Below are positions 4,621-62,051 of a DNA stretch of 64,000 bases, piece by piece. Made by a program: the position numbers and the translations under genes. The notes under the pieces were generated by a model. The model was not told where the DNA came from, searched no databases, and saw nothing but the letters and a program-made list of their open reading frames with translations. Numbering within the stretch: position 1 is the first letter of the stretch; each line of letters opens with the position of its first letter. Source of the DNA: Octopus vulgaris (lineage: Eukaryota); the NCBI GenBank assembly GCA_951406725.2, contig OX597818.1, positions 34,286,001 through 34,350,000 on the forward strand, read 5' to 3'.

Positions 4621-5598
4621 GAATCGTTAGCACGTCTGACAAAATACTTAGCGGCATTTCGTTCGTCTTAACGTTCTGAGTGCAAATTCTGCCGACATCG
4701 ACTTTGCCTTACATCAGTTGGAGGTCGATAAAGTAAGTATCAGTTAAGCATTGGAGTCGATGTAAATGATTTACTCACTTCCTCCAAATAGCCGGCCTTA
4801 TACATAAATTTAAACTTAATATTTCCACAAACCGTATAGCAGCGAGCTGGCACGACGGGCAAAATGTTTAGCGGCTTTTCGTCCGTCTTTATGTTCTGAG
4901 TTCAAATTCCGCCGAGGTCGACTTTGCCCTTCATCTTCTCCTGGTCGATTAAATAAGTACTAGTTTAACACTCGGGTCGATATATTCGACTTGCTCTTTC
5001 ACTAAAGTTCCCGACCGGTTTTTGTGTGTTTCTTAAATGGCTTATAAACACATTCCACACTGCAATTGTTTATTGTTAAGCTCGACGTAAGGCTCGATGT
5101 TACACTCGATGTAATGTACCAACCACTTCCTCCAAAATTATTAAACCAGTATTTGCAAGCTGGCAGAATCGTTAGAGCATCGGAAAAATAACTTCTGCGG
5201 TTTTTCTTTAGGCTCTACATCTTCAGTTCAAATCCTGCCGAGGTCAACACTGCCTTTCATCCCTCTGGGGGTCGATAAAATAAAATACTACTCTTGTATT
5301 GCGGCCGATGGTATCGACTAATCCAATCCCACTCCACCCACAAAAAAAAAGTGTTGACCTTAAGCAGAAACGATTATAAAGCGGAGAGCTGGCAGAATCG
5401 TTAGAGCGTTAGAAAAATTTTGCGCTATTTGTGACGTATCTTTTCGTTCTGAGCTCAAATGACGCTGGGCTCAACTTTGTATATTACTTTAAAATGAGTT
5501 TTAGAATAAAAGCAAAACATTTACTGACGGGATGGGGGGAGTGATCTCAATACTGAGAGTTGAGTCAAATTTATTGTAGTTGCGTTTAACATCAACTT

Positions 5599-11221: not shown

Positions 11222-11227
11222 ATTTTA

Positions 11228-12835
11228 GATAAACTTAGATATGTTTCGACCAGAGATTGGTCCAGGCCATGTCTAACTTAATAGCACCACCTGATAGGAT
11301 TATTCGAATCCTGTTTAAGTCAAGTTTTGTTCAAGTAGTGAGTTCTTGTTGGGTGAGTTGTATCCAGTTTTGTTCAAGTAGTGAGTTCTTGTTGGGTGAG
11401 TTGTATCCAATTATTGGTGGCTTATCTGGTATTCTTTGAAGGAATCTATCCAGACTCTGTTTAAAGTTGATGGGATCCTTTTCCTCTTTGATCTCCCTCG
11501 GGACAATGTTAAATAGGGCAGGGCCTGTTGAGGAAAAGAAATTATGTTGCAGTGTACATGTATGTTGTGATCTTGAATTTGGCAGGGGACGTATAGCCCG
11601 TGGTCCAAGTCTTGGATGGACCTTGAAGCTAATGTTTAGGTCGTTTGGGCAAAGTTGGCGGTATATTTTCCACATCGTACAAATGATGGACTGCTCACGG
11701 CGACGCTGGAGGGAGTAAAGTTTCAAGGCTTTAAAGCGATCCCAATAATCGAGAGCAGCCATGCCTTCAATTTGTTTAGTGAGAGCTCTCTGGGGTGACT
11801 CAATTCTGGAGATGTTTTGTCTTGTGTGAGGAGACCACAGTGGGCAGCAGTATTCGAGGTGTGGCCGTACAAAGAAGGAAAAAAGTGGTATGATGACACC
11901 TTGTTCTCTGGACCGGAAAGTTCTTAAGATCCAGGAACTCATCCTACGAGCTATATCAACCTTCTTGTTGATGTGTGCACTCCAACTGAGATCGTCATCA
12001 ACAATTACACCCAGGTCTCTGATATTGTTAGAGGCTGTGAGCGGTTCCCCTGAAGGAAGAGAGTATGGTTGTTTTAGTGAGGAATTTCTTCCAAAATGCA
12101 TCAGCTCAAATTTTCCCTCATTCAGTTGCATTTTGTTTCTGTCTGCCCATTGACTCACAGCATATAGATCAGACTGGAGTTGAGTTCGGTCTGCTTCTTC
12201 ATTGACGATTTGCTGGAGCTTAGTGTCATCAGCGAATATTTTCACTTTGCAGTGATGTACGACACTGGAAGGTCGTTTACGTAAATTATGAAGAGTAGCG
12301 GACCCAAAACAGTTCCCTGGGGAACACCGCTGGTGACTTTTGCTGGGTTTGAGTGGATTCCATCAACTACAACATGTTGTGTTCTATTCGCCAGGAAATA
12401 CTTAATCCAGTGTAGAACTTTTCCACGGATTCCAACATTTGCCAATTTTGAGAGTAGGATGTTATGGTCTACCCTGTCGAACGCTTTACTGAAGTCAATA
12501 TATATGACGTCAGAGCTCGAACCTGTTCCCAAGGCTTTGAGTACATCTTCAATGTGGTGTAAGAGCTGTGTTAGACAGTCCCTGTCACAGCGAAAGCCAT
12601 GCTGATTTGAATTTAGGAGTTTGTGGGTCTCCAGGAAGTCAGCTATCCTTGATCTTAACACTCTTTCAAACACTTTAATGATGTGGGAGGTGAGTGAGAT
12701 TGGGCGATAGTTGACTGCGAGGGATCTGTTTCCCTGTTTGAAAACCGGGATGACCGACTGGGAAAGAAACTGTTTCGGTATATAACCTGCGTCTAACGAG
12801 TTTCTCCAGAGGTTGGTCAGAGGGACTGCAAGTTG
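11228..12835 (-). mobile_element. 5'-truncated CR1/L2-like LINE (RT domain plus 3' UTR), one frameshift
   Basis: NYRPISLTSH...QHGFR...YIDFSKAFDRVDH...GVPQGTVLGPLLF...FADDTKL...VRPHLEYCCPLWSP; 42-bp tandem duplication near the 3' end; (TA)n on both sides. Confidence 0.92.
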
Positions 12836-17448: not shown

Positions 17449-17506
17449 TTAATAATGATGATGATGATGATGATGATGATGAGGAGGAGGAGGAGGAGGA
17501 GGAGGA

Positions 17507-19262
17507 TTTCATTTATTTGCCACCAAGGTAAAGGATGAAGGGGACGGTATAAAACAGACGTAAAGTGTGGGGTTTTACATACAATGAAATGTAAAAAATA
17601 TAAATAAACAAACAAAAGAATGTGTAAGTATACACGGTATGCAATGAAAAGCAAGGGAAATATACATAATATACAAAGGTAAAAAAGTGGGGGGTGATAG
17701 AGATGTTGTCCTCTTGATACAGGATGACCCCTAGGGATAATTGGGGAACCCCGCTGTCCAAGACCTCCCTGAACACTAAAGGCAAGTACCCTCTCCAATT
17801 CCTTTTCTCCAACTAAAAAGTTTATACTTAGAGAGACCATCCACTCTTGCTATTTTCGCAACCTTTCAATAAACTCACTCGAGGACAGCGCTTCCCTCTC
17901 CGCCCTTAATTTCTTTTTCATGTGAAACTTGAAGAAGTCAATAAGACCTCTACCAAAGAGGAAGGTACTTGTCTTCATGCCTTTCAACCTCGTCCACCAC
18001 ACAATCTCTTCCGTCATAGTCACCAGACAAAGGAAAAGTACCTTGCCTGCCCAATTCAAGGAGGGCAGCAAGACAATCATCACTATGGACTCGGCCAACA
18101 GACGGATCCGTCTCACACGCGACAGTAGCTGTTCCACATAGCCCCACATGTTGGCAATGCTCAGACACGGAACGTGTGTGTGCAGAACGATTTCGTCGCT
18201 CTGTGCGCTCCTCAGACAAGCCCGTCTGACAGCATATCTGTGTCTGTAGGGTTCATCTCGAACCGGTAGCACTGCCAGGCCAAGGACATCTGGAAATTAC
18301 CCACAATAGTTACCGACCGGGAAGTACTCCAGAATAGACTGGGCAATTTGTTTTCATCGATGCCTGGAGTCTCCCCGAATATGCCATCGTACTTCCTCGA
18401 CACTAATCATCTATAAATTACTAAAGCGGAACGTCCACAGATCCAATTACCCGACTAGTAGTGGTCTGTGAGAGCCGGACAACATTCTAGGTGCCAGGCA
18501 CCGTCTAGAAACCGTTGTAGGTGGTGCAACGTAAGAGCGTGCCTGCGCATTAGAAGCTACAACATACCTAATCCGCCACTCACAGGGTACTACCAGGCAC
18601 CATCCAGAAACCGTAGTAGGTGGTGCAATGTAAGAACGTGTCTGCGCATTAGAAGCTACAGCATACCTAATCCGCCACTCACAGGGTACTACCAGCAAAC
18701 TCAACGCTTGGCCACTGGAACGCGTCCCTTCCACAAGAAATTAAATAAGAGACACCCCAACCTGGTCAAGCAGTAACTGGGAGAAGCTACGACGGTCAGG
18801 CGATAAATGATAACGGTGGTGATGTAGACATTCGCCACCTCTACCCGACCTTTCAGGGAAAGCTTCCTCTCAGCCCATTTCTGTTTAAGACTGACCACCC
18901 TGTTCGTCATCTCGTCCCAGTTCTTATCTCCCTGGAGGTCGAGACTAAACCAAACCACGAGCAGTTTAACTGGTCCGTCGGTCCAGTGTCCGACGACGAC
19001 GTCCGATGGCATCGACCTGCCTCTCCAGGAGCCCAACTGCAAAGCTACCGATTTGTCGGCATTGATTTTAGCCTCTGCAACCGAGTCGTATTCCTTTAGA
19101 ATGGTGCTAACCGTCTCTACTTTAGAGGTGTCCGACACCATGACGGTAACGTCGTCCGTGTACGCCGACACTGCCCTTCCCTGTCCCAGTTCAAAAGGGA
19201 TGCCCCTTAACTATTCCAACTGCCATAGCAGTGGCTCGAGTGCCAAGATTCGTCCAAAACGA
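17507..19262 (-). mobile_element. 5'-truncated Tx1/L1-clade LINE
   Basis: SAYTDDVTVMV...KINADKS...WAERKLSLKGRVEVAN...LFNFLWKG and C-terminal FFKFHMKKKLRAERE; 99-bp internal tandem duplication at 18494-18691; pyrimidine-rich 3' UTR. Confidence 0.85.
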
Positions 19263-19289
19263 GGAGGAGGAGAGGAGGGATAGAAGGGC

Positions 19290-19511
19290 GAAGAAGAAGA
19301 AGAAGAAGAAGAAGAAGAAGAAGAAGAAGAAGAAGAAGAAGAAGAAGAAGAAGGAAGAAGAAGAAGAAGAAGAAGAAGAAGAAGAAGAAGAAGAAGAAGG
19401 AAGAAGAAGAAGAAGAAGAAGAAGAAGAAGAAGAAGAAGAAGAAGAAGAAGAAGAAGAAGAAGAAGAAGAAGAAGAAGAAGAAGAAGAAGAAGAAGAAGA
19501 AGAAGAAGAAG

Positions 19512-19541
<30 letters not shown>
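19290..19541. repeat. (GAA)n microsatellite
   Basis: Direct reading. Confidence 0.97.
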
Positions 19542-19542
<1 letters not shown>

Positions 19543-19689
19543 CAAACAAATTCAGTGATATACTAAAACCCAAAAAAATAACAGAAGAGAAAATACACTC
19601 CATGATCAGAAAGTTACAAGGCTCGAGAGAAAAAAAAGGAAATATACTGAACTGGAAACCAACTATGATTTAAAAGAACCTCAGACAAA

Positions 19690-20200
19690 AAAAAAAAACA
19701 GAAGCATGATTGATCTTAACTGCACAGGACCAAATGCAGGTAAAAAAAATATTTACAAAAATAAAATAATGAAAACAATAAACCAACAAAAGTGCAGATT
19801 TTACTCTCAAACCAGAGAGACAGTTGATCACAATATTGGCTGCTGTTCTGTCCTTTTTAAGTCACAGATGCGATTAAGTTGGCAGCTATTGCCCACTGGG
19901 CAATATGCCAGTGCTTCACTGTGGAAATGAATAAAAAAAAAGTTACCAAATACGGTACATGGGAACGACTTGATCACAAGCATCCGAAGTATGACTGTCA
20001 AACTAACAAAGAAATCAAAGAAAACAGTCAAATGACTTGAATGGAAATGTCTTGAATGATAGACAACGCGATTACATCTCACCAAAATATTGCCTGAAAG
20101 GATGTAAAGAAACTGAAAGAATCTGGTTGTGGGGGCAACCTTTGAAACTGAAAGAGCATGTTGTGGGGTATGAAAGTGAAAGTAGTATCAATAATTATGA
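19690..20200 (+). mobile_element. Highly decayed R4-like LINE C-terminal fragment
   Basis: KCRFYSQTRETVDHNIGCCSVL resembles the CCHC knuckle; many stops and frameshifts. Confidence 0.45.
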
Positions 20201-20440
20201 AAGTACTAAATACGGTGAGCTGTCGGAATCGTTAGCGCGCTCGGTAAAATGTTTCACGGCGTTTTGTCCATCAGTACGTTCGGAGTTCAATTTCCGCCAC
20301 AGTCGATTTTTTTTTTTTTTCCATCTTTTTGGGGGGTTTATAAAATTGGGCACTGGGATCGTTATAATCGACTTAACTCCATCCTGAAATTTCTGTCCTT
20401 GTTCGAAAACTTAAATTCAATGATTATTAGAGTACTAGGT

Positions 20441-20666
20441 ATTCTTTTATTCTTCTACTTGTTTCAGTCATTTGACTGTGGCCAGGCTGGAGCACCACCC
20501 TTAGTCGAACAATTCGACCCCAGGACTTACTCTTTGTAAGCCTAGTACTTACTCTATCGGTCTCTTTTGCCAAACCGCTAAGTTACAGGGCCGTAAACAC
20601 ACCAGCATCGGTTGTCAAGCGATGGTCAGGGAACAAACACAGATACACACACACACACACATACAC

Positions 20667-20709
<43 letters not shown>

Positions 20710-20873
20710 CGACGGGCTTCTTTCAGTTTCCGTCTATCAAATCCACTCACAAGGCTTTGGTCAGCCTGAGGCTATAGAAGGAGACACTTGCACAAGGTGT
20801 CACGCAATGGGACTGAACCCGGAACTCATGTGATTGGGAAGCAAGCTTCTTACCACACAGCCACTCCTACGCC
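20441..20873 (-). mobile_element. SINE family A
   Basis: Full reverse-complement match. Confidence 0.85.
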
Positions 20874-21000
20874 TATGTATGGTAATACTTTTTTTTAATG
20901 AACAAAGCTATGCCAAGGCTGACAACGTTAATCACAGTCCAACAGAGATCTATACTAAGCACAATCTAGTTACTATTTAAGATATCAGATGTTCTAATTG

Positions 21001-21458
21001 TTTTCTACTCTAGGCACAAGGCCCGAAATTTTGGGGGAGGGGGCCAGTCGATTTCATCGACCCCAGTACGCAACTGGTGCTTAATTTATCGACCCCGAAA
21101 GGATGAAAAGCAAAGTCGACCTCGGCGGAATTTGAACTCAGAACGTAAAGACAGACGAAATATCACTAAGCATTTCGCCCGGCGTGCTAACGTTTCTGCC
21201 AGCTCACCAGCTTATCAGATGTTTTATATTTCTTTACTACCCACAAAGGGCTAAACACAGAGGGGGCAAACAAGGACAGACAAACGGAGTAAGTCGATTA
21301 CATCGACCCCAGTGCGTAACTGGTACTTAATTTATCTACCCCGAAAGGATGAAAGGCAAAGTCGACCTCGGCGGAATTTGAACTCAGAACGTAACGGCAG
21401 ACGAAATACGGCTACGCATTTCGCCCGGCGTGCTAACGTTTCTGCCAGCTCACCACCT
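21001..21458 (-). mobile_element. Two adjacent SINE B copies with different tails
   Basis: 21001-21212 has the alternative tail, 21228-21458 the standard tail; ATCAGATGTT-like flank occurs three times. Confidence 0.85.
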
Positions 21459-21585
21459 TATCATATGTTTTAATTGATCAAATATACAAACCTACTAAAT
21501 ACACGCTTCATATTCCTAGCAATTGTCACCCATTTGCACGACAATATATGCTGTGCGTAGTCTATAAAATCTTACACTGTCATCC

Positions 21586-24977: not shown

Positions 24978-25500
24978 CATCATCACCATCATCATTGTTC
25001 GACCGTGGTCGAGACAATGGAATTTACCATGCTACGCCAGACTTCACGGTCCATCATGACATTACGGAGGTCCTGTTGCTGGATGCCTGTATCCCTGGAG
25101 ATTACATCAGGGTAGGAGAGTGTGCGCCCTCTGGCATTGCGAGTAGATGGCTTCCAGAGGAGGAGAGTAGAAATTACCTCTTTTTCAGCTCTACAACAAT
25201 GTCCAGCAAACTGGACTCTTCTACCTTTCACAAGAGATGACACAGGTGGTAGTTTCCCATATATTTGCATTTTGGTTGGATGGCGCTTCCACGAGAGATT
25301 TTGAGCTCTCATAAGGAGGCGAGTGTAGGTTCCATCCAACCGCCTCTCAAGCTTCTTTGATAACGTCCAGGTTTCTGAGCCATATAGTAGAATTGGTTCG
25401 ACTGTGGCTTTGAAGATTTCAAGTTTGAAGTCTCTACTTAGATTTGATGACCAGATCTTATGCATGTCATTACAGGCTGACCAGGCTGACCAGGCCATAC
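24978..25500 (-). mobile_element. RTE-clade LINE 3' end
   Basis: KLEIFKATVEPILLYGSETWTL...FAGHC...GRTLSY...MMDREVWRSMV followed directly by a (GAT)n tail. Confidence 0.85.
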
Positions 25501-26074
25501 ATAGGTTGCACCAAAAAGCCAATATGAGAGTTTTTCTCGTGGTAACACCCACGTTTAAGTGGGGCTAAATCATTGAGAACCACTCAATGATTATACAATC
25601 CAATATTTTCAATTTCTTTTTAATGAAGGTGGATGTAATACAACGGGTGTTATTTGTTGCTATACGAGAGATTGTATAAAGCAAGAGAGTCAACTTCGTT
25701 GGACTTTGCAGACTGGATTGATGCAAAACTAGGTGTGGCGAGCAAGAGAGAGACATTTGTTCTTAAAAAGTTTACTGATATTGTAGGCCACAGTAAATAA
25801 ATATAGATGTCAATATACTTTAGAGGTGGGGATATGAAAGCAAATTTTGTGTGCAGAAATGTGTTAGAAAATTCATCTACATACATACACACAAACAAAT
25901 ACACACACACACGCACGCACGCACACAGTTACACGTATACATACATACATACATACATACATACATACATACATACATACATACATACATACATACATAC
26001 ATACATACATACATACACACGTACAAGTGTAAATATATATGTGTATCTCTTCTAGCTTTTAATTATTATAAATC

Positions 26075-27450
26075 TTCCACTGAGGAGGGAGCCGGTTTCC
26101 AACAAAGATGCAAGGCTCCATCTTTGGGACGAAGTTAACACAGACAAATTAACATTTGTAACTTGAGAAAAGTCTTGCATAATTTCACTGTTCCATTCAC
26201 AGATTGCACTTGTAATGTGCGAATCAGCCGACGAATTTCTCTTTCTGAAAATCCCAGTTTATCCAGATTTTCCTTTAAGCATTTACTAATAAAACCAAGT
26301 GCTCCAATTATTGGTATGAATACGAATTCATAGTCTGAATTATAGATACTGGAGGTTTCGAAGCAGTTGTCCATAGATATCCTCTTTTCCTTTGATTTTC
26401 AAAGAGATATTTATATCTTCAGGGCAGCTGACTTCCAACACGATACATACCTTTGCCCCTCTGTCCCAAACAACAATATCCGGCCTGCTATGTTTACATT
26501 TGACAGAAGTTTTGATGGGAATATTCCACCAGTATTCATTGACCTGGTGTTTATGAATGTTTTCCTTAACAAAGGGATTTTCTAAGTTTATTTCCGGACA
26601 GTCGTTTTTCTGGATGGCATTGTAAATTGTTTTAGCGACAACATCGTGCCGCATAGGAAGGTAGTACCGTGACGACATTTCAGGACAGCTGCTAATCACT
26701 TGTGTATCTTCCACAGAAACCCAACATAGCCTACACATGCGGTTGCACCTTGGGATTACAAGAACGTCACTGTGTCTCTTGTTCACCAGGTAATTTGTGG
26801 CAATCTCCTGTTCCTGGATTCCAAACGCATAGCTTTCAAATTGTGATGTGATGTAGTGGTCTTGTGTCCAAGAGAGGCTGCGCTTCGTGTCAATTCTACT
26901 GTCTTCTTTAAGCTTCTGAGCAACCATGCATGGTCTCCTTTTTCTTTTTTTTTTTGCATATTGAGTACTTTCCACCCAGGTCTTCTCTGAGGTAAGGGAG
27001 CCCAGCTGTCTTGGGGCTGTATAGGAGATCATCAAGAAGAGAGTGTTTCTTGAGAGTTCAACTCGTACAATGTTGCTCACTTCACTTTTCAGAACTGTAT
27101 TAATGTATTTATTTTTGCTGCTGTTTTTTGGCAGATGCTGTCTGAGTGATACCATACGGCATTCGAAGGCCGTCTGTACTGATCTCAAGCCTCTACTACT
27201 TTCATTCTGTCAACATCACTGTTTCTGTGGGAGCTCCCAGCTGTTGTCAGGATTTTGCGGGTTTTGATATCTATGGAGTGTATTTCCTCTACAGACCAAT
27301 CAAGTATCCCAAATGTCGGGATCAGCACTAGTACTGCATTGTTGTAAGAGGAGAGTTTTGACTGCCATATTTTCCTAAGTCTGATGTAATATTCTCGGGT
27401 CACTCTATTTTTACTCACAGTGCCTTCATATACTTTTTCATCTATGGAGT
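26075..27450 (-). mobile_element. R4/Dong-like LINE: post-RT region, CCHC knuckle and PD-(D/E)xK restriction-like endonuclease, frameshifted
   Basis: CRLC...VISSCPEM...MRHDVVA...KHSRPDIVVWD...LEVSCPED...IPIIIGALG. Confidence 0.85.
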
Positions 27451-27612: not shown

Positions 27613-28004
27613 TGTATGTATGTATGTATGAATGTATGTATGTATGTATGTATGTATGTATGTATGTATGTATGTATGTATGTATGTATGTATGTATGTA
27701 TGTATGTATGTATGTATGTATGTATGTGTGTGTGAATGTATGTATGTATGTTTTGTTTTATGTTTGTATTCTCTTGCATATACTTGCATACCTAATCATG
27801 CTCATACAACTTGAACACACATCAGTACATAAACATACATATATACACACACGCAGACACGTCTACACAATTACATACGTAAATACTCACATACATACAT
27901 ACATACATACATACATACATACATACATACATACATACATACATACATACATACATACATACATACATACATACATACCTATCATGAACTAACTATTACT
28001 CTCT

Positions 28005-28411
28005 CAGATGCAGCTCCAAGTTTTGTCAGTGAACAGGTCGTGGTTTCAAAGCCACGAAAATATTTTGACACAAGCGAATTTTGTCAGAGAACAGGTCGCG
28101 GGTTCAAGGCGACGAAAATATTTTGACAAATTAAATTTAGATGCTGAAGTGAATCTAACGGTTTTTGTGTGTTTTTAAGTAACTTACAAACATCTTCCAC
28201 GCTGCAATTGTTTTTATTTCCGCACACGATCTCAGATCAGGTCACTTGCTTTGCAAGTACATCTCTGAAAATTAAATGTTGAAATGAAACTAACGGTTTT
28301 TGTGTGTTCTTAAATGGCTTACAAATATCTTCCACGCTGCAATTGTTTTTTTTTTTATTTCAGGGCACGATCTTAGATCAAGTCACTTGCAATGCAAGCA
28401 CATCTCCGTAA
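28005..28411 (+). repeat. Partly duplicated copy of a ~210-bp dispersed repeat containing two hammerhead-like motifs
   Basis: Same family as 43878-44090; the first module (28021-28130) and the second module (28140-28410) each occur twice. Confidence 0.8.
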
Positions 28412-29007: not shown

Positions 29008-29012
<5 letters not shown>

Positions 29013-30063
29013 CGATGACTGTTTCATCTTTTGGAACAGATCAGAAGAGGACCTACAAACATTCCACAACATCCTCAATACGCTGCACCCATCTATCAAT
29101 TTCACAATAGATACCAGCCACAACGAACTTCCCTTCCTAGACATCAACATCAAAATACACAACTCCATCGTCACAACAGACATCCACTACAAAAAAACTG
29201 ACACACATCAATACTTAAATTTCCACTCCTGCCACCCATCCCACACAAAAAGAAACATCCCATATAGTATGGCACGACGAATATGTAGCATAGTAACTGA
29301 TTCACAAATACGATTAATAAGACTAGATGAACTCAAAAGCTTCCTCCTAGAGCAAAAATACCCCCTTAAACTAATAGAAAATGGAATCACAAGAGCATTA
29401 AAACTAGACATCACACAACTCAGGACACCCAAAACAAAAAACAAAGAAAACACTATCCCTTTTATAAACACACACAACCCTGGAGTTACCAACATCTTCC
29501 AAACCATACATTCAAACCTACCAATAGCCTTACAGAGCCCCAAAATGAAAAACATATTAAACAAATATAGCATAAAAAACAGTAGACGACAGGACAAAAA
29601 CCTAAAAAAACACCTAACAAGAGCGAAATTCTCTTCAGAAACTAAAACGGAATTCTTTGCAAAAGAGTGCGGAGATGGTAGATGTGGGACCTGCAGCAAC
29701 CCCACCTACAAATACATAGAGAGCAACAGAGAGATAAGATTTAAAAATGGTGTCATATTCAAAGTAAATGCAGATATGAACTGCAAGACGCAGAACGTCA
29801 TATACTGCATAACCTGCCCCACATGCAAGGAGAATTACGTAGGAGAAACTGGTAATTCTTTGTGCCAGCGAGCCAGGATCCACCGACAACATATTCGGCA
29901 GGAAGAACTACGCAAAATACCACTAAGCACACACCTAGCTACATGTGGAGAAGGAAAATTTAAGATATTTCCCTTCTACAAGTGTCCGAAGAATGACACC
30001 CCCTTCAGGAGGAATATGGAAAAACATTTCATAGCTAAGTTCTCCCCCAAATTAAATGGCTGA
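29008..30063 (+). mobile_element. Penelope-like element (Neptune-type): RT C-terminus, Cys linker and GIY-YIG endonuclease; 5'-truncated, frame open
   Basis: In-frame YLDDCFIFW...LHPSINFT...LPFLDI...YKKTDTHQYLNFHSCHP; linker CGDGRCGTC; VIYCITCPTCKENYVGET...RIHRQH (CCHH); ends FSPKLNG stop. Confidence 0.92.
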
Positions 30064-30583
30064 AACTTTACTCAACATACATTGAAGGAAAAATCTGTGT
30101 GTGTGTAGATGTGTGTATTGCCTGTTATATACATCATATTATATTATTATCTTTATAATTCACTTCCATCTTTACCCTTTAATTGTCACTTTAATTTTAA
30201 CTTTCCTATGACATACAACTTTCAAGATGGTATAATTTGGTTGTTCATTTTGAACCGATAAAAAGGTTTTTTCAAATATTTTATGTATAAGTCTGTGTGT
30301 GTGTGTGTATATATATGTGTTGGTATAAATATCAACACACAAAAATATTTTTTCTTCTCCACTTCCTCCCTTATTTTTATTTTTATTTTTATTTTTATTT
30401 TTTTATTTTTTATTCTTTATATTTTTATTTATTCTTTATATTTTTTTATTTTATTTTTTATTTTTGTTTTTATTTTATTTTATTTTTTTAATTTTTTAAT
30501 TTTTTATTTTTATTATTATTATTTTTATTTTCCCTTTTCTCTTTTTGTCTCTCTCCCCTTCTCCAAACACACAGACACACACA

Positions 30584-30623
<40 letters not shown>

Positions 30624-30833
30624 AAAACACACACAGACACACAGAGAGACACACACACACACACACCTCCACAGAATGATCATAGAAAGTGTGACCCCAA
30701 ATGACATTTGCCAGGCCAACCTATGCACAACACACACTCAGTGACATTGAAATGGACAGCCAAAGTTCTTATAAAACCACAGGGGGTCCAGCAGACCAAC
30801 GGAAATAACACTTCTTCACTCTCAGATATAAAT

Positions 30834-30909
<76 letters not shown>

Positions 30910-31138
30910 ACATATTTTCTCTCTGTCTCACTTCCTCCTCACCCACTACTACGAAACTATAAAAAGGTTCAAACTACCCACAACTGATTTGATTTGAAAA
31001 CCCACTAGAATGGGAGCAAGCGCTAATCCGAATGATATGATATATATGTAAAAAATGTAATATATAAATAAATATCTACAAATATGAACCATCTGATCTG
31101 ATTACCTCAATTTTTCTAATATATATATATATATATAC

Positions 31139-43214: not shown

Positions 43215-43877
43215 TGTCTATAATCCCTCTCCAGATTGACTACGCAAATTAGAAACTTTTGAGCTGACCAGTTGAAATGGTGGACACCGTGCACAATCTA
43301 TTCCCTCTTAAGTACACAGATATTCTATCTAGCTACGATCTAGATGACTCGATACAATTTATCCCATGTTCACACGGAACACGTTAGGAAAATCCAGTCG
43401 TCACTTGTCAGATTTGGGAATTATCTGAGCAAGGCTTTTCGTTGTCTACATTTTTTTTATAGAATACTCGCATGCAATTTCTGTGCTTACCCATGATTCC
43501 GCCCCAGGTACCCACTAGTACTGATTAGCAGGGCATCCCCCAAAATGATTGCTTTCCTCCAAACGGATTATCAATGGCTACTCACTAGAAGACACCACCT
43601 TCACAGCTGCTTACAACCAGGAAAACTGTCTTACGATCGAAACCAAGAAGAACGTCTGTCTCGATATTTGGATCTTTTCAGAACAGTGTTACCCTGCTTG
43701 ATCCAGACTGACCGAAAGATGTATACACCTCGTAGTTGTCGTTGTTGTCGAGAACCAGCTCAAATGACGACATGCCTGATCTCGATGATGGCGGCCATAT
43801 CAATCTTAAGAGAATGCAAGTCGTTAAGTAAGTAACATTACTTTTTGGTCAACTTCAAATATTATTCTTTTAGACAT

Positions 43878-44090
43878 GAGATGCAGCACGGAATTTTGTC
43901 AGTGAACAGGTCGCGGTCTCAAAGCGACGAAAATATTTTGACAAATTAAATTTAAATGTTGAAGCGAATCTAACGGTTTTTGTGTGTTTCTTAAATGGCT
44001 TATAAACACCTTCCACGTTGCAATTGTTTTCGTTCCAGGACACGATCTCAGATCAGGTCATTTGCTATGCAAATTTGCTACATCTCCGTA
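43878..44090 (+). repeat. ~210-bp dispersed repeat (hammerhead carrier)
   Basis: Homologous to 28005-28411 and to the fragment at 5016-5072. Confidence 0.85.
43895..43945 (+). ncRNA. Putative minimal type-I hammerhead ribozyme, G3-C8 core variant
   Basis: TTTGTCA-GTGAACA-G-GTCGC-GGTCTCAAA-GCGAC-GAA-AATATT-T-TGACAAA: 7-bp helix I, 5-bp helix II, palindromic helix III. Confidence 0.6.
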
Positions 44091-44164
44091 AATCTTTTGT
44101 TCATTTTACTGCAAATATATACGGTGTAAAATAATAATTAAAATAGTATATATTGTCCATTAAT

Positions 44165-45310
44165 GTCCCCTGTGGCTGATGACTAGCAACACGTTTGACA
44201 ATATTTGGTTCCAAATTTGATAAAAGAAGTCGTCAATCCTCATGCTGCGCAACTTCCATTTTGTTTAAATTCTTGATCAAAATTTGGTTTGCTGCGTTAA
44301 AACCCTTCAACTCCAGAGCGAAGGATGGAAACGTAACAAAATAAAAATTGGTTTTATTCTACAATGTAGGATACTTCAAACTAAGTTGCACCCATCTTTC
44401 ACACAAGCTTTGATTTTCAGAAACAATCATCGTTACTTCATCATTCTGGTCTCCTGTAAATCAATTTTTTATTCTCCTTTGCACATAAATGCATTGTTTC
44501 ACTCAGTCAGGAATCTTCAGTTTAATTAGATCATTAAATTTTCTTTCAAAATCTTTCTTGAATTGTTGTAGATAGGCACGCTCTGTCCTCAGATTATCAT
44601 TTGATTATCCACAGATTATCTACGGATTATCATTAAAGGCGGCGAGCTGGCAGAAACGTTAGCACGAAATGCGTTAGGCGAAATGCGTAGCCGTATTTCG
44701 TCTGCCGTTACGTTCTGAGTTCAAATTCCGCCGAGGTCGACTTTGCCTTTCATCCTTTCGGGGTCGATAAATTAAGTACCAGATACGCACTGGGGTCGAT
44801 ATAATCGACTTAAACCGTTTATCTCTCCTTGTTTGTCCCCTCTGTGTTTAGCCCCTTGTGGGTAGTAAAGAAATAGGTATTTCGTCTGCCGTTACGTTCT
44901 GAGTTCAAATTCCGCCGAGGTCGACTTTGCCTTTCATCCTTTCGGGGTCGATAAGTACCAGTTACGATAAGTACCAGTTACGCACTGGGGTCGATGTAAT
45001 CGACTTAACTCCTTTGTCTGTCCTTGTTTGTCCCCTGTATGTTTAGCCCCTTGTGGGCAATAAAGAAATAAGATTATCATTTGTTGGTAAATGTGAAAGT
45101 TTTCTCATTGATGGAAACTGACAGAATTCCCTTCTGCAAAGGTTTTACTTGCGCAATTCAGTTTTACTTATAAAGCTATTTATTGCCTGTATTACATAAA
45201 AATTGTTTCTGTTTTTGCAAATACAGGTTGTTGATCTTGTCGGGAATATCCTCGAAGTAATCCACTCTCCAGGAATAAAGTTTGTCTCCTGTTAGTTGGT
45301 CCTCATGATT
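44165..45310 (-). mobile_element. hAT (Buster/Charlie-like) transposase C-terminal relic, split by a SINE B dimer
   Basis: DYFEDIPDKINNLYLQ and WVQLSLKYPTL...TFPSFALELKGFNAANQIL...RLLLSNLEPNI...SHQPQG resemble the hAT dimerisation region; many stops. Confidence 0.6.
44638..45070 (+). mobile_element. SINE family B dimer
   Basis: Head-body-tail-body-tail; GATTATCATT on both sides. Confidence 0.88.
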
Positions 45311-47207: not shown

Positions 47208-48234
47208 ATGGAAATATCCAAAGAGCATTTAAGGCACATAGAGCGCTATGAGTACAAAAAATGAAATTCTGCAGCTGAAGCGACTCAAAACATACACTCA
47301 GTTTATGGGAAAGAATACTTGAATGAAAGAACTTACAGAAGATGGTTTGCAAAATTCAGAAGTGGAGATTTCAGCTTTGAAGATGAAGATCGAACAGGAC
47401 GTCCAATTGAGTTTGATGATAAGCTCCTTGAGGCATTACTTAAAGAAAATCCTGCATTATCAGTTGAAGAATTAGCAATAAAGTTTAGTTCAAACCATAC
47501 AACTGTTCATCGTCATCTTCAATAACTTGGAATGGTTCCTAAACTTAGAAAATGGGTGCCTCATGAATTGTCCGAAAGTAATTGCAAATCCCGAGTTGAC
47601 ATCTGCTCTTCTCTCCATTCTCACGAACTCATTTCACCCTTTTTGGATAGACTTGTGACTGGTGACGAAAAATGAATCTTCTATCCAAATGTTAAACGTC
47701 GTAAACAGTGGCTTGGTAAAAAGGAAAAAAAGCTCAACCACAACTGAGAAAGGAACTTCATGGGAAAAAGGTTCTTCTCTCTGTCTGATGGGATTGCAAA
47801 GGAGTAATTCATTTTGAATTATTACCACCTAATGCAACAATGTTCAAGTCTACTGTCAGCAATTAGAGCGTTTGAACCAAGCTTTGAAGAAAAAAAGACC
47901 CGCTTTAGTGAATCGAAAAGGAGTGATGTTTCATCAGGACAATGCGCGACCCCACACTGCAAAGATCACATCACAGAAGATCGAAGAGCTTGGTTGGGAA
48001 AAAATTCCTCATCCACCTTATTCTCCCGACCTTGCTCCTTCACATTACCATTTGTTTCGTAGTTTACAGATTCATTTGGGGGACATAACTTTCGCAAGCC
48101 AGGAGGAGGTCGAAACTGACATTTCAGAGTTCTTCGCTGTGAAACCAAAAGAGTTTTACATTGATGGGATTAAAAAGCTTGTAAATAGATGGAAGGAAGT
48201 CATAGATAATCAGGGAAAGTACATTGATGATTAA
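47208..48234 (+). pseudogene. Mariner (D,D34D-type) transposase pseudogene
   Basis: WFAKFRSGDFSFEDEDRTGRP, WVPHEL, LVTGDEK, FHQDNARPHT, HPPYSPDLAPSHYHLF (third catalytic D is H); several stops and frameshifts; right TIR-like CGGACAGAATTTATGGGATGACC at about 48284-48306. Confidence 0.93.
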
Positions 48235-60584: not shown

Positions 60585-60609
60585 TATATGTATGTAATAT
60601 ATATATGTA

Positions 60610-61997
60610 AGGATAGCTGACTTCCTGGAGACCCACAAACTCCTAAATGCAAATCAGCATGGCTTTCGCTGTGGCAGGGACTGTCTAACATAGCTCTTAC
60701 ACCACATTGAAGATGTACTCAAAGCCTTGGGAACAGGTTCGAACTCTGATGTCATATATCTTGACTTCAGTAAAGCGTTCGACAGGGTAGACCATAATAT
60801 CCTACTCTCAAAATTGACAGATGTTGGAATCCGTGGAAAAGTTCTACACTGGATTAAGTATTTCCTGGCGAATAGAACACAACATGTTGTAGTTGATGGA
60901 GTCCACTCAAGCCCAGCAAAAGTCACCAGCAGTGTCCCCCAAGGGACTGTCTTGGGTCCGCTACTCTTCATAATTTACATAAACGACCTTTCCAGTGTCG
61001 TACATTACTGCAAAGTGAAAATATTTGCTGATGACACTAAGCTCCAGCAAATCGTCAATGAAGAAGCAGACCGAACTCAACTCCAGTCTGATCTATATAC
61101 TGTGAGTCAATGGACAGACAGAAACAAAATGCAACTGAACGAGGGGAAATTTGAGCTGATGCATTTTGGAAGAAATTCCTCACTAAAACAGCCATACTCT
61201 CTTGCTTCAGGGGAACCGCTCACAGCCTCTAACAATATCAGAGACCTGGGTGTAATTGTTGATGACGATCTCAGTTGGAGTGCACACATCAACAAGAAGG
61301 TCGATATAGCTCATAGGATGAGTTCCTGGATCTTAAGAACTTTCCGGTCCAGAGAACAAGGTGTCATCATACCACTTTTCTCCTCCTTTGTACGGCCACA
61401 CCTCGAATACTGCTGCCCACTGTGGTCTCCCCATACAAGACAAAACATCTCCAGGATTGAATCACCCCAGAGGGCACTCACTAAACGAATTGAAGGCATG
61501 GCTGCTCTCAATTATTGGGATCGCCTTAAAGCCTTGAAACTACTCTCTCCAGCGTCGCCGTGAGCGGTCCATCATTTGTACGATGTGGAGAATATACCGC
61601 CAACTTTGCCCAAACGACCTGAACATTAGCTTCAAGGTTCATCCAAGACTGGGACCACGGGCCATACGTCCCCTGCCCAATTCAAGATCACAGCATACAT
61701 GTACACTGCAACATAATTTCTTTTCCTCAACAGGCCCTGCCCTGTTTAACATTGTCCCGAAAGAGATTAAAGAGGAAAAGGATCCCATCAACTTTAAACG
61801 GAGTCTGGATAGATTCCTTCAAGGAATACCAGATAAGCCACCCATAATTGGATACAACTCACCCAACAAAAACTCACTACTTCAATGGACCATAAACAAA
61901 ACTTGACTTAAACAGGATTCAAATAATCCTATCAGGTGGTGCTATTAAGTTAGACTTGGCCTGGACAAATCTTTGGTCGAAACATATCTAAGTTTAT
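60610..61997 (+). mobile_element. 5'-truncated CR1/L2-like LINE, same family as 11228-12835
   Basis: YLDFSKAFDRVDH, VPQGTVLGPLLF, FADDTKL; near-identical peptide; one stop and one frameshift; runs into (TATG)n. Confidence 0.92.
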
Positions 61998-62051
61998 GTA
62001 TGTATGTATGTATGTATGTATGTATGTATGTATGTATGTATGTATGTATAA

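Follow-up and report, generated by a model that had tools for sequence, protein, structure and literature searches.

Textbook accounts of the hammerhead active site include the C3–G8 pair, and the 2'-OH of position 8 is the general acid of the hammerhead. The closest described systems are the minimal hammerheads that metazoan Penelope-like elements (PLEs) carry; they are of type-I topology with one additional nucleotide separating positions 9 and 10.1, a G10.1–C11.1 pair and a palindromic helix III, lie in the pLTR, occur in thousands of mostly solo copies and have C3–G8, plus a U3–A8 variant in Schistosoma (Cervera & de la Pena 2014, PMC4209133). Natural U3–A8 covariants, in which the tertiary 3–8 pair has undergone a compensatory change, have been described in their own right (Perreault et al. 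2011, PMC3088659), and G3–C8 is known as a tested hammerhead variant (PMC3884650). In the Poseidon PLE of the anole, the hammerhead cleaves only with protein, a C3G/G8C double mutant is partly active, and two internal start sites of the reverse transcriptase (RT) define a tail, the uncut RNA being the template (Frangieh et al. 2024, PMC11167929).

In a 64-kb stretch of Octopus vulgaris DNA, the whole of which is called the window below, we analyzed a repeat whose hammerhead motif shares with the PLE minimal hammerheads the structural features, the location and the abundance listed above. It differs from them in having G3–C8 and in its longer helix I (6-7 bp), and the C3/U3 descriptors of PMC4209133 would not match its G3 core. 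As in the U3–A8 covariants, the change in the 3–8 pair is compensatory; U3–A8, however, keeps the pyrimidine–purine order, whereas G3–C8 inverts it and places a pyrimidine at position 8. The octopus family has in common with anole Poseidon a tail with two RT starts, an apparently uncut template and the lack of read ends at the cut site, but its tail is longer (~60 nt compared with 30-40), and G3–C8 is the wild type of the whole family, compared with an engineered mutant in the anole.

The new point would be G3–C8 as a natural form, the PLE minimal hammerhead as a kind, natural U3–A8 and engineered G3–C8 being known. No report of a natural G3–C8 hammerhead was found in the literature searched, which took in PMC6765202, PMC11014351, PMC13481778 and PMC7151607 (nothing on G3–C8 was found in the last three), with Lunse 2017, Przybilski & Hammann 2007 and Hammann 2012 outside its coverage. 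The PLEs of octopus have been counted in a study whose main text contains no use of 'hammerhead' or 'ribozyme' (PMC13282606); the family itself may well already be catalogued as a repeat in Repbase or Dfam.

Hammerhead motif with a G3–C8 core

The motif is composed of the following features:

43895..43945, + strand: minimal hammerhead motif of type I, helix I of 7 bp
43895-43901 / 43939-43945, + strand: helix I strands, TTTGTCA/TGACAAA
43902-43908, + strand: core G3 U4 G5 A6 A7 C8 A9 (GTGAACA)
43909, + strand: extra G between positions 9 and 10.1
43910-43914 / 43924-43928, + strand: helix II, 5 bp, G10.1–C11.1 (GTCGC/GCGAC)
within 43910..43928, + strand: loop II, 9 nt, sequence varying by subfamily
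43929-43931, + strand: G12 A13 A14 (GAA)
43932-43937, + strand: helix III, self-complementary AATATT
43938, + strand: U17, with the predicted cut directly 3' of it

The helices, core, extra G, palindrome and UUU site given in a preliminary description of this locus were found letter for letter, and U17 falls at 43938, the position after which cleavage had been predicted. The motif has all four hallmarks of the minimal hammerheads in PMC4209133, among its features being the extra nucleotide 9a, G10.1–C11.1 and the palindromic helix III; the type-I minimal PLE-like topology proposed earlier is upheld. U4, G5, A6, A9, G12, A13, A14, A15.1–U16.1 and H17 are present, each being the majority state in all three family alignments described below; in place of the consensus C3/G8 (CUGANGA), the motif has G3 and C8. 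The predicted fold with helices I and II had an energy of -13.8 kcal/mol (z -2.5), which was equalled by 2 of 200 shuffles. A descriptor allowing any Watson-Crick 3–8 pair returned this motif as its single match on both strands of the window and, on 30 dinucleotide shuffles, a mean of 0.13 matches, none of equal strength.

Rfam returned no match at E ≤ 10 on 43860-44110 and, among the matches listed for the whole window (150 of 259), only repeat-driven ones. The zero result in the face of more than 7,000 exact genomic copies marks a blind spot of Rfam and descriptor searches. Canonical Rfam relatives were rejected, since a genome search with RF00163, in which 73 candidates were scored, led to six canonical hammerheads without significant similarity to the repeat. 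As a separate observation, canonical C3–G8 type-I hammerheads of other families are present in the same genome (L061-L066), three of them with an extended helix II of ~60 nt. Coding constraint on the motif was also discarded, because a frameshift between subfamilies alters the short frame that the ATG at 43881 opens.

The terminal repeat and its parent element

The motif forms the 5' part of a ~215-bp repeat. In the genome searched, a 2.8-Gb assembly of 227 contigs, the core 17-mer had 7,171 exact matches (3,640 + 3,531) and the 3' 20-mer of the repeat 8,197, with 0 for the reversed control in each case, in agreement with the dispersed repeat of the preliminary description. The cross-occurrence of the two in two samples (10/30 and 14/30) gives a rough estimate of 17,500-21,500 arms genome-wide. 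Sequencing runs under seven organism labels contain at least half of the window's sampled words, and none among the holders listed was RNA. The pieces in the window are as follows:

43878..44091, + strand: solo short copy of the terminal repeat of the PLE (pLTR piece) with motif, 3' region and tail, bounded by genome matches
43878..43879, + strand: 5' boundary, G at 43878 (C in the parent) and A at 43879
44027..44091, + strand: optional ~60-nt PLE tail, between two preferred 3' ends
27804..28070, + strand: longer copy with part of the parent's microsatellite-rich 3' UTR
28075..28272, + strand: second arm, partial tandem (motif 28080-28130, G3 at 28087, U4A)
28268..28411, + strand: third tandem piece, 5'-truncated, without the hammerhead motif
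5016..5071, + strand: short 5'-truncated, tail-less fragment of the repeat family

The three motifs in the window all keep G3 and C8, as had been claimed, but two of them are damaged: the one in the 27804..28070 copy, with G3 at 28029 and C8 kept, has a C.C mismatch in helix II, and the one at 28080-28130 retains both bases despite U4A.

The parent was reached by walking upstream. A 26-nt upstream motif had 203 exact genome matches, and the walk through the microsatellite-rich tract led to a GIY-YIG fragment in locus L238; a genome search with this fragment yielded 380 candidates, of which 40 were scored and 30 loci taken. In 15 of the 30 loci, the repeat lies downstream of the endonuclease (EN) on the same strand, with the hammerhead core about 0.3-1.4 kb past the EN stop, compared with about 0.5% expected by chance for any one locus, given ~20,000 arms. 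The check for linked GIY-YIG and RT suggested in the preliminary description was thus positive. Two RT motifs, GAIG and YVDD, are present in the coding pieces of the parent, together with a CX3CxxC linker and an endonuclease containing CCHH; the latter scores 23.1 bits with Pfam PF01541 (GIY-YIG), for which the cut-off is 22.6. At 55% identity, the closest full protein is P0002 of Octopus vulgaris, which has a weak RVT_1 match (E 0.004). The copy at 43878..44091 is 91-96% identical to the 3' end of the parent copies L287 and L291. The readable cores in the parent loci were G3–C8 in 9 of 14, G3.G8 in 3, G3.U8 in 1 and C3.C8 in 1. No full-length intact parent was seen among the copies fetched, four of which were extended 4 kb upstream and were all 5'-truncated or broken, and a sense pLTR lies upstream of one copy on contig C16 (L307/L296) in partial tandem. 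Many of the long parent copies cluster on that contig.

The ~215-bp unit constitutes the terminal piece (pLTR) of a PLE that is autonomous, with RT and GIY-YIG, and the motif almost certainly descends from a PLE pLTR hammerhead. Of the earlier proposal of a non-autonomous family of PLE-terminus or retrozyme-like type, the PLE terminus stands, whereas a stand-alone family does not, the pLTR being linked to an autonomous PLE. By the linker, the only motif used for this assignment, the parent would be an EN+ PLE of the Neptune/Nematis type; it has a zinc-finger-like linker, and Penelope and Poseidon are without one. With the Neptune and Nematis elements, it shares RT, a CX2-5CxxC linker and, at the C terminus, GIY-YIG with CCHH as well as (TA)n or AT-rich targets, inverted 5' arms and a tail (Craig et al. 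2021, PMC8557442); it differs from them in the non-canonical core and in that every parent copy retrieved is either broken or truncated at its 5' end.

The window also contains, at 29008-31120 (+), a 5'-truncated copy of a different and very young EN+ PLE, which was considered as the parent and rejected; in 30 loci there was no descriptor match inside the element, any Watson-Crick 3–8 pair being allowed, and no similarity to the repeat. One locus of this type (L087) has an adjacent copy of the repeat, as expected by chance. At least 30 genomic copies of this element show 100% identity to one another over 351 aa, and many of them have open frames of 775 aa. Its 3' UTR is 1 kb long and rich in microsatellites, a tail of ~31 nt is optional, and the targets are (TA)n. 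The lack of a descriptor match inside it contrasts with the description of canonical hammerheads as universal in such clades.

Conservation of the core and predicted cleavage

The fold was compared between a young subfamily alignment (the 30 best matches) and an older one (412 candidates, 30 aligned, mean 87% to the consensus); both were picked by similarity to the query, by which the column frequencies are biased upward and the consensuses are reliable, and covariation was read from the family consensuses. G3 and C8 were each found in 28 of 30 young copies, and in 26 and 27 of 30 old ones, respectively. The swap, being the majority state in both subfamilies, is a family trait as first suggested. 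In one subfamily pair, partitioned by hand, 0 of 35 constrained motif positions differ between the consensuses, compared with 22 of 142 positions 3' of the motif (Fisher p 0.009). Helices I and II, whose conservation had been proposed as a check, are kept between the consensuses, the sixth pair of helix I having changed from T–A to G–C; helix III went from AATATT (young) to AATT (old) with the palindrome kept, and the free positions changed, N7 from A to C and loop II by replacement. Although the CpG-rich helix II has decayed in individual copies, all three consensuses retain it, including that of the third family described below.

After insertion, G3 is no better kept than N7, as indicated by 348 genome matches with altered position 3 (any N7/N8; control 11) compared with 242 altered at N7; 429 are altered at position 8. 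As read from the consensuses, it was the source elements, unlike individual copies, that retained the core and helices. A canonical C3–G8 subfamily on the same scaffold was rejected as essentially absent, with 2 cases in the first 100 of the 348. By hand counts, G3.G8 makes up about 38 of the first 100 of the 429 position-8 mutants (~160 copies) and C3.C8 11 of the first 100 position-3 mutants; the G3.G8 class is roughly four times the reciprocal class and about 2% of the exact-core count. It includes the parent copies L291, L297 and L301 (G000:C16) and one inverted pair. The counts suggest either that a lineage whose core is predicted to be dead still multiplied about hundredfold, or that duplications took place.

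In a second old family (981 candidates), all 30 copies aligned have U3 and 27 of them G8, a wobble pair in the consensus; the family has PLE-like inverted arms (L157-L186, e.g. G000:C1:139196782-139197092) and a 2-bp helix III, and no parent was found for it. Its helices I and II and extra G are those of the G3–C8 repeat; the search pattern by which it was found fixed the 5' helix strands. Outside the motif, the two are collinear with weak similarity, equalled by 8-15 of 1,000 shuffles; an HMM comparison on 40 sequences each gave 21 forward and 2 reversed matches (best E 0.003), and the reciprocal search gave almost nothing. The U3.G8 family is probably, by this sequence comparison, a sister of the G3–C8 family.

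Closing helix III within a monomer is unfavourable (+5.4 kcal/mol). The double-hammerhead dimer is predicted at -27.0 kcal/mol, compared with -15.6 for two helix-III-closing monomers, and is roughly neutral against two open monomers (-26.4); in the dimer of best energy (-32.0 kcal/mol), helix II is swapped and helix III open. The conservation and the lower energy of the double-hammerhead dimer compared with the closed monomers speak for, and the best-energy dimer against, the reading that we consider quite probable, namely a PLE pLTR hammerhead with a G–C 3–8 pair that would, likely slowly, cleave itself after U43938 as a dimer or with the assistance of the element's protein. The predicted cleavage is also fairly likely to be measurable. 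A natural G3–C8 family in high copy number, conserved at the level of subfamilies, provides evolutionary support for the 3–8 pair and a ready substrate for kinetics.

A dead or vestigial hammerhead, whose fold the pLTR would retain for protein binding, as a promoter or in connection with splicing, with G3–C8 as a tolerated relic, is unlikely but has several points on its side, the first of which is that the insertion templates appear uncut. Among 180 arms pooled from five samples, several of them core-anchored, only one starts at 43935-43939, and no pile-up of 5' ends was seen at the predicted cut site; cut RNA is therefore no visible template. RNA reads do not end there either: in two raw RNA-seq runs of the same study on a related species, of which about 6% each was read, no pile-ups of molecule starts or ends were found, including at the cut site, and there was no back-joint (circle) among the 15 joints listed, the library type being ill-suited to circles. 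The 2,009 and 1,496 reads that aligned to the element came from both strands about equally, and ~80% of the element-matching reads ran on into other sequence; consequently, they are uninformative on element-specific expression. The same reading would accommodate the amplified G3.G8 sub-lineage and the finding that hammerhead mutants were without effect on in vitro insertion by the anole PLE (PMC11167929).

A splice-related role is further suggested by CTAAC...CAG, which resembles a branch point and 3' splice site and lies just upstream of the motif in both subfamilies, and by Penelope of D. virilis, in which the intron ends at helix I (PMC4209133). When the 5' boundary was considered as a splice site, neither the copies nor the loose read ends revealed a common first exon; there may be a very short one. 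Against a vestigial hammerhead, however, the unpaired U4, G5, A6, A9, G12, A13 and A14 and the pairing of 3 with 8 are kept in three consensuses while neighbouring free positions change, a pattern that is specific to hammerhead chemistry, and the anole ribozyme likewise has no RNA-seq ends yet cleaves with protein. The combination of uncut templates and the spread of broken cores with source elements that nevertheless kept the core bears on the purpose of PLE hammerheads in general.

Insertion architecture and the origin of the short arms

The copies of the repeat show the insertion architecture of PLEs, with inverted 5' arms, a tail and AT-rich targets (PMC8557442, PMC11167929). The 41 distinct insertions sampled comprised 24 single arms, 17 head-to-head pairs and 0 tandems. 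The 3' ends of the arms fall at two preferred sites, ~44022-44031 and ~44078-44098; 24 of 59 arms were short, 34 were tailed and 1 was neither, and in each of the 17 pairs one arm ended at 44022-44031 and the other had the further ~60-nt tail. Target duplications, where visible, were AT-rich and variable in length (about 6-14 nt), and many copies were inserted in (TA)n.

In the same pooled and partly core-anchored sample of 180 arms, 106 start at 43875-43889 and 6 upstream of 43870. Where AG-ATG is present at the junction, 17 of the 24 cases that are not of the parent type have G as the preceding base, and the next upstream base varies; the excess of G at the 43878 junction has a binomial p of 5e-8 against an assumed 19% G. 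By analogy with the untemplated 5' G at full-length L1/SVA insertions, which has been attributed to cap copying (PMC3287187), we infer that G at 43878 may be a copied RNA cap and A at 43879 the transcription start.

The probable hammerhead reading given above can be put as a sequence of steps. Transcription would start at about 43879 in the pLTR. With uncut RNA as the template and priming from AT-rich nicks, the RT would have two internal start sites, one near 44025 and the other near 44091. Copying of the 5' pLTR would run off the capped RNA end and leave arms of 150-215 bp, of which there are thousands; copying of the 3' pLTR would continue into the UTR, EN and RT and give the long copies, which are rarer. 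Two molecules would join to form helix III, and cleavage, which would process or limit the element's transcripts, is probably not required at every insertion. A bolder version, for and against which we hold the evidence to be evenly balanced, is that the natural G3–C8 form is active in two subfamilies, with the U3.G8 family as sister, that the 3–8 pair is freely rewritten in PLE evolution and that the ~20,000 arms are run-off cDNAs made in vivo. If this is the case, CUGANGA-based surveys would miss whole families, perhaps including PLE clades that have been called ribozyme-free, and the short arms would reveal the positions of the two internal RT starts as well as that of the RNA's capped 5' end.

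It is very improbable that the short unit is instead an independent, non-autonomous retrozyme- or SINE-like element, which spreads, maybe via RNA circles, with PLE proteins acting in trans. Long arms are rare, as is seen from the 6 of 180 that start upstream of 43870 and from the 203 exact matches of the upstream motif compared with 7,171 of the core. Moreover, animal retrozymes derive from pLTRs (bioRxiv 10.64898/2026.07.22.740005), and the octopus repeat shares with non-LTR retrozymes a short, pLTR-related non-coding unit and a type-I hammerhead (same preprint; PMC7229834). One tandem array of ~426-bp units (L029) was also present among the 30 best matches. Unlike those retrozymes, however, the octopus copies are not tandem arrays, none of the 41 sampled insertions being tandem, and the boundaries of the unit lie off the cleavage site, with the 5' ends clustered about 60 nt upstream of the predicted cut and not at it. 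In addition, a subfamily with a variant loop II also occurs with parent-type upstream sequence (L211). The retrozyme-like character put forward in the preliminary description is not borne out by copies that are mostly single or head-to-head.

A TIR or MITE DNA element with a coincidental fold is effectively refuted: the ends do match in inverted orientation at 7 of 8 nt (GAGATG.A and T.CATCTC), but the repeat is linked to RT and GIY-YIG, its 3' end lies at either of two sites and its 5' ends are ragged instead of fixed, its target duplications are AT-rich and vary in length at about 6-14 nt, and its head-to-head arms are unequal, so that the TIR origin named in the preliminary description as a way for its proposal to fail does not apply.

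The array at L029 (G000:C27:32597174-32600383) consists of at least six units of ~426 bp, each made up of a pLTR piece and part of a SINE-like repeat, and the motif of its centre unit is damaged; it is a candidate for a retrozyme-like satellite. In the window, an abundant SINE-like repeat of ~240 bp is present at 44633-45074 and a dozen other sites, often as partial tandems. Two inverted copies of a LINE RT fragment, which we take to be CR1-like, lie at 11226-12650 and 60609-62000 and are 93% identical. The stretches at 18701-19210, 24992-25564 and 26340-27209 are presumably further retroelement fragments, and the one at 47833-48234 is presumably a piece of a mariner-like transposase.
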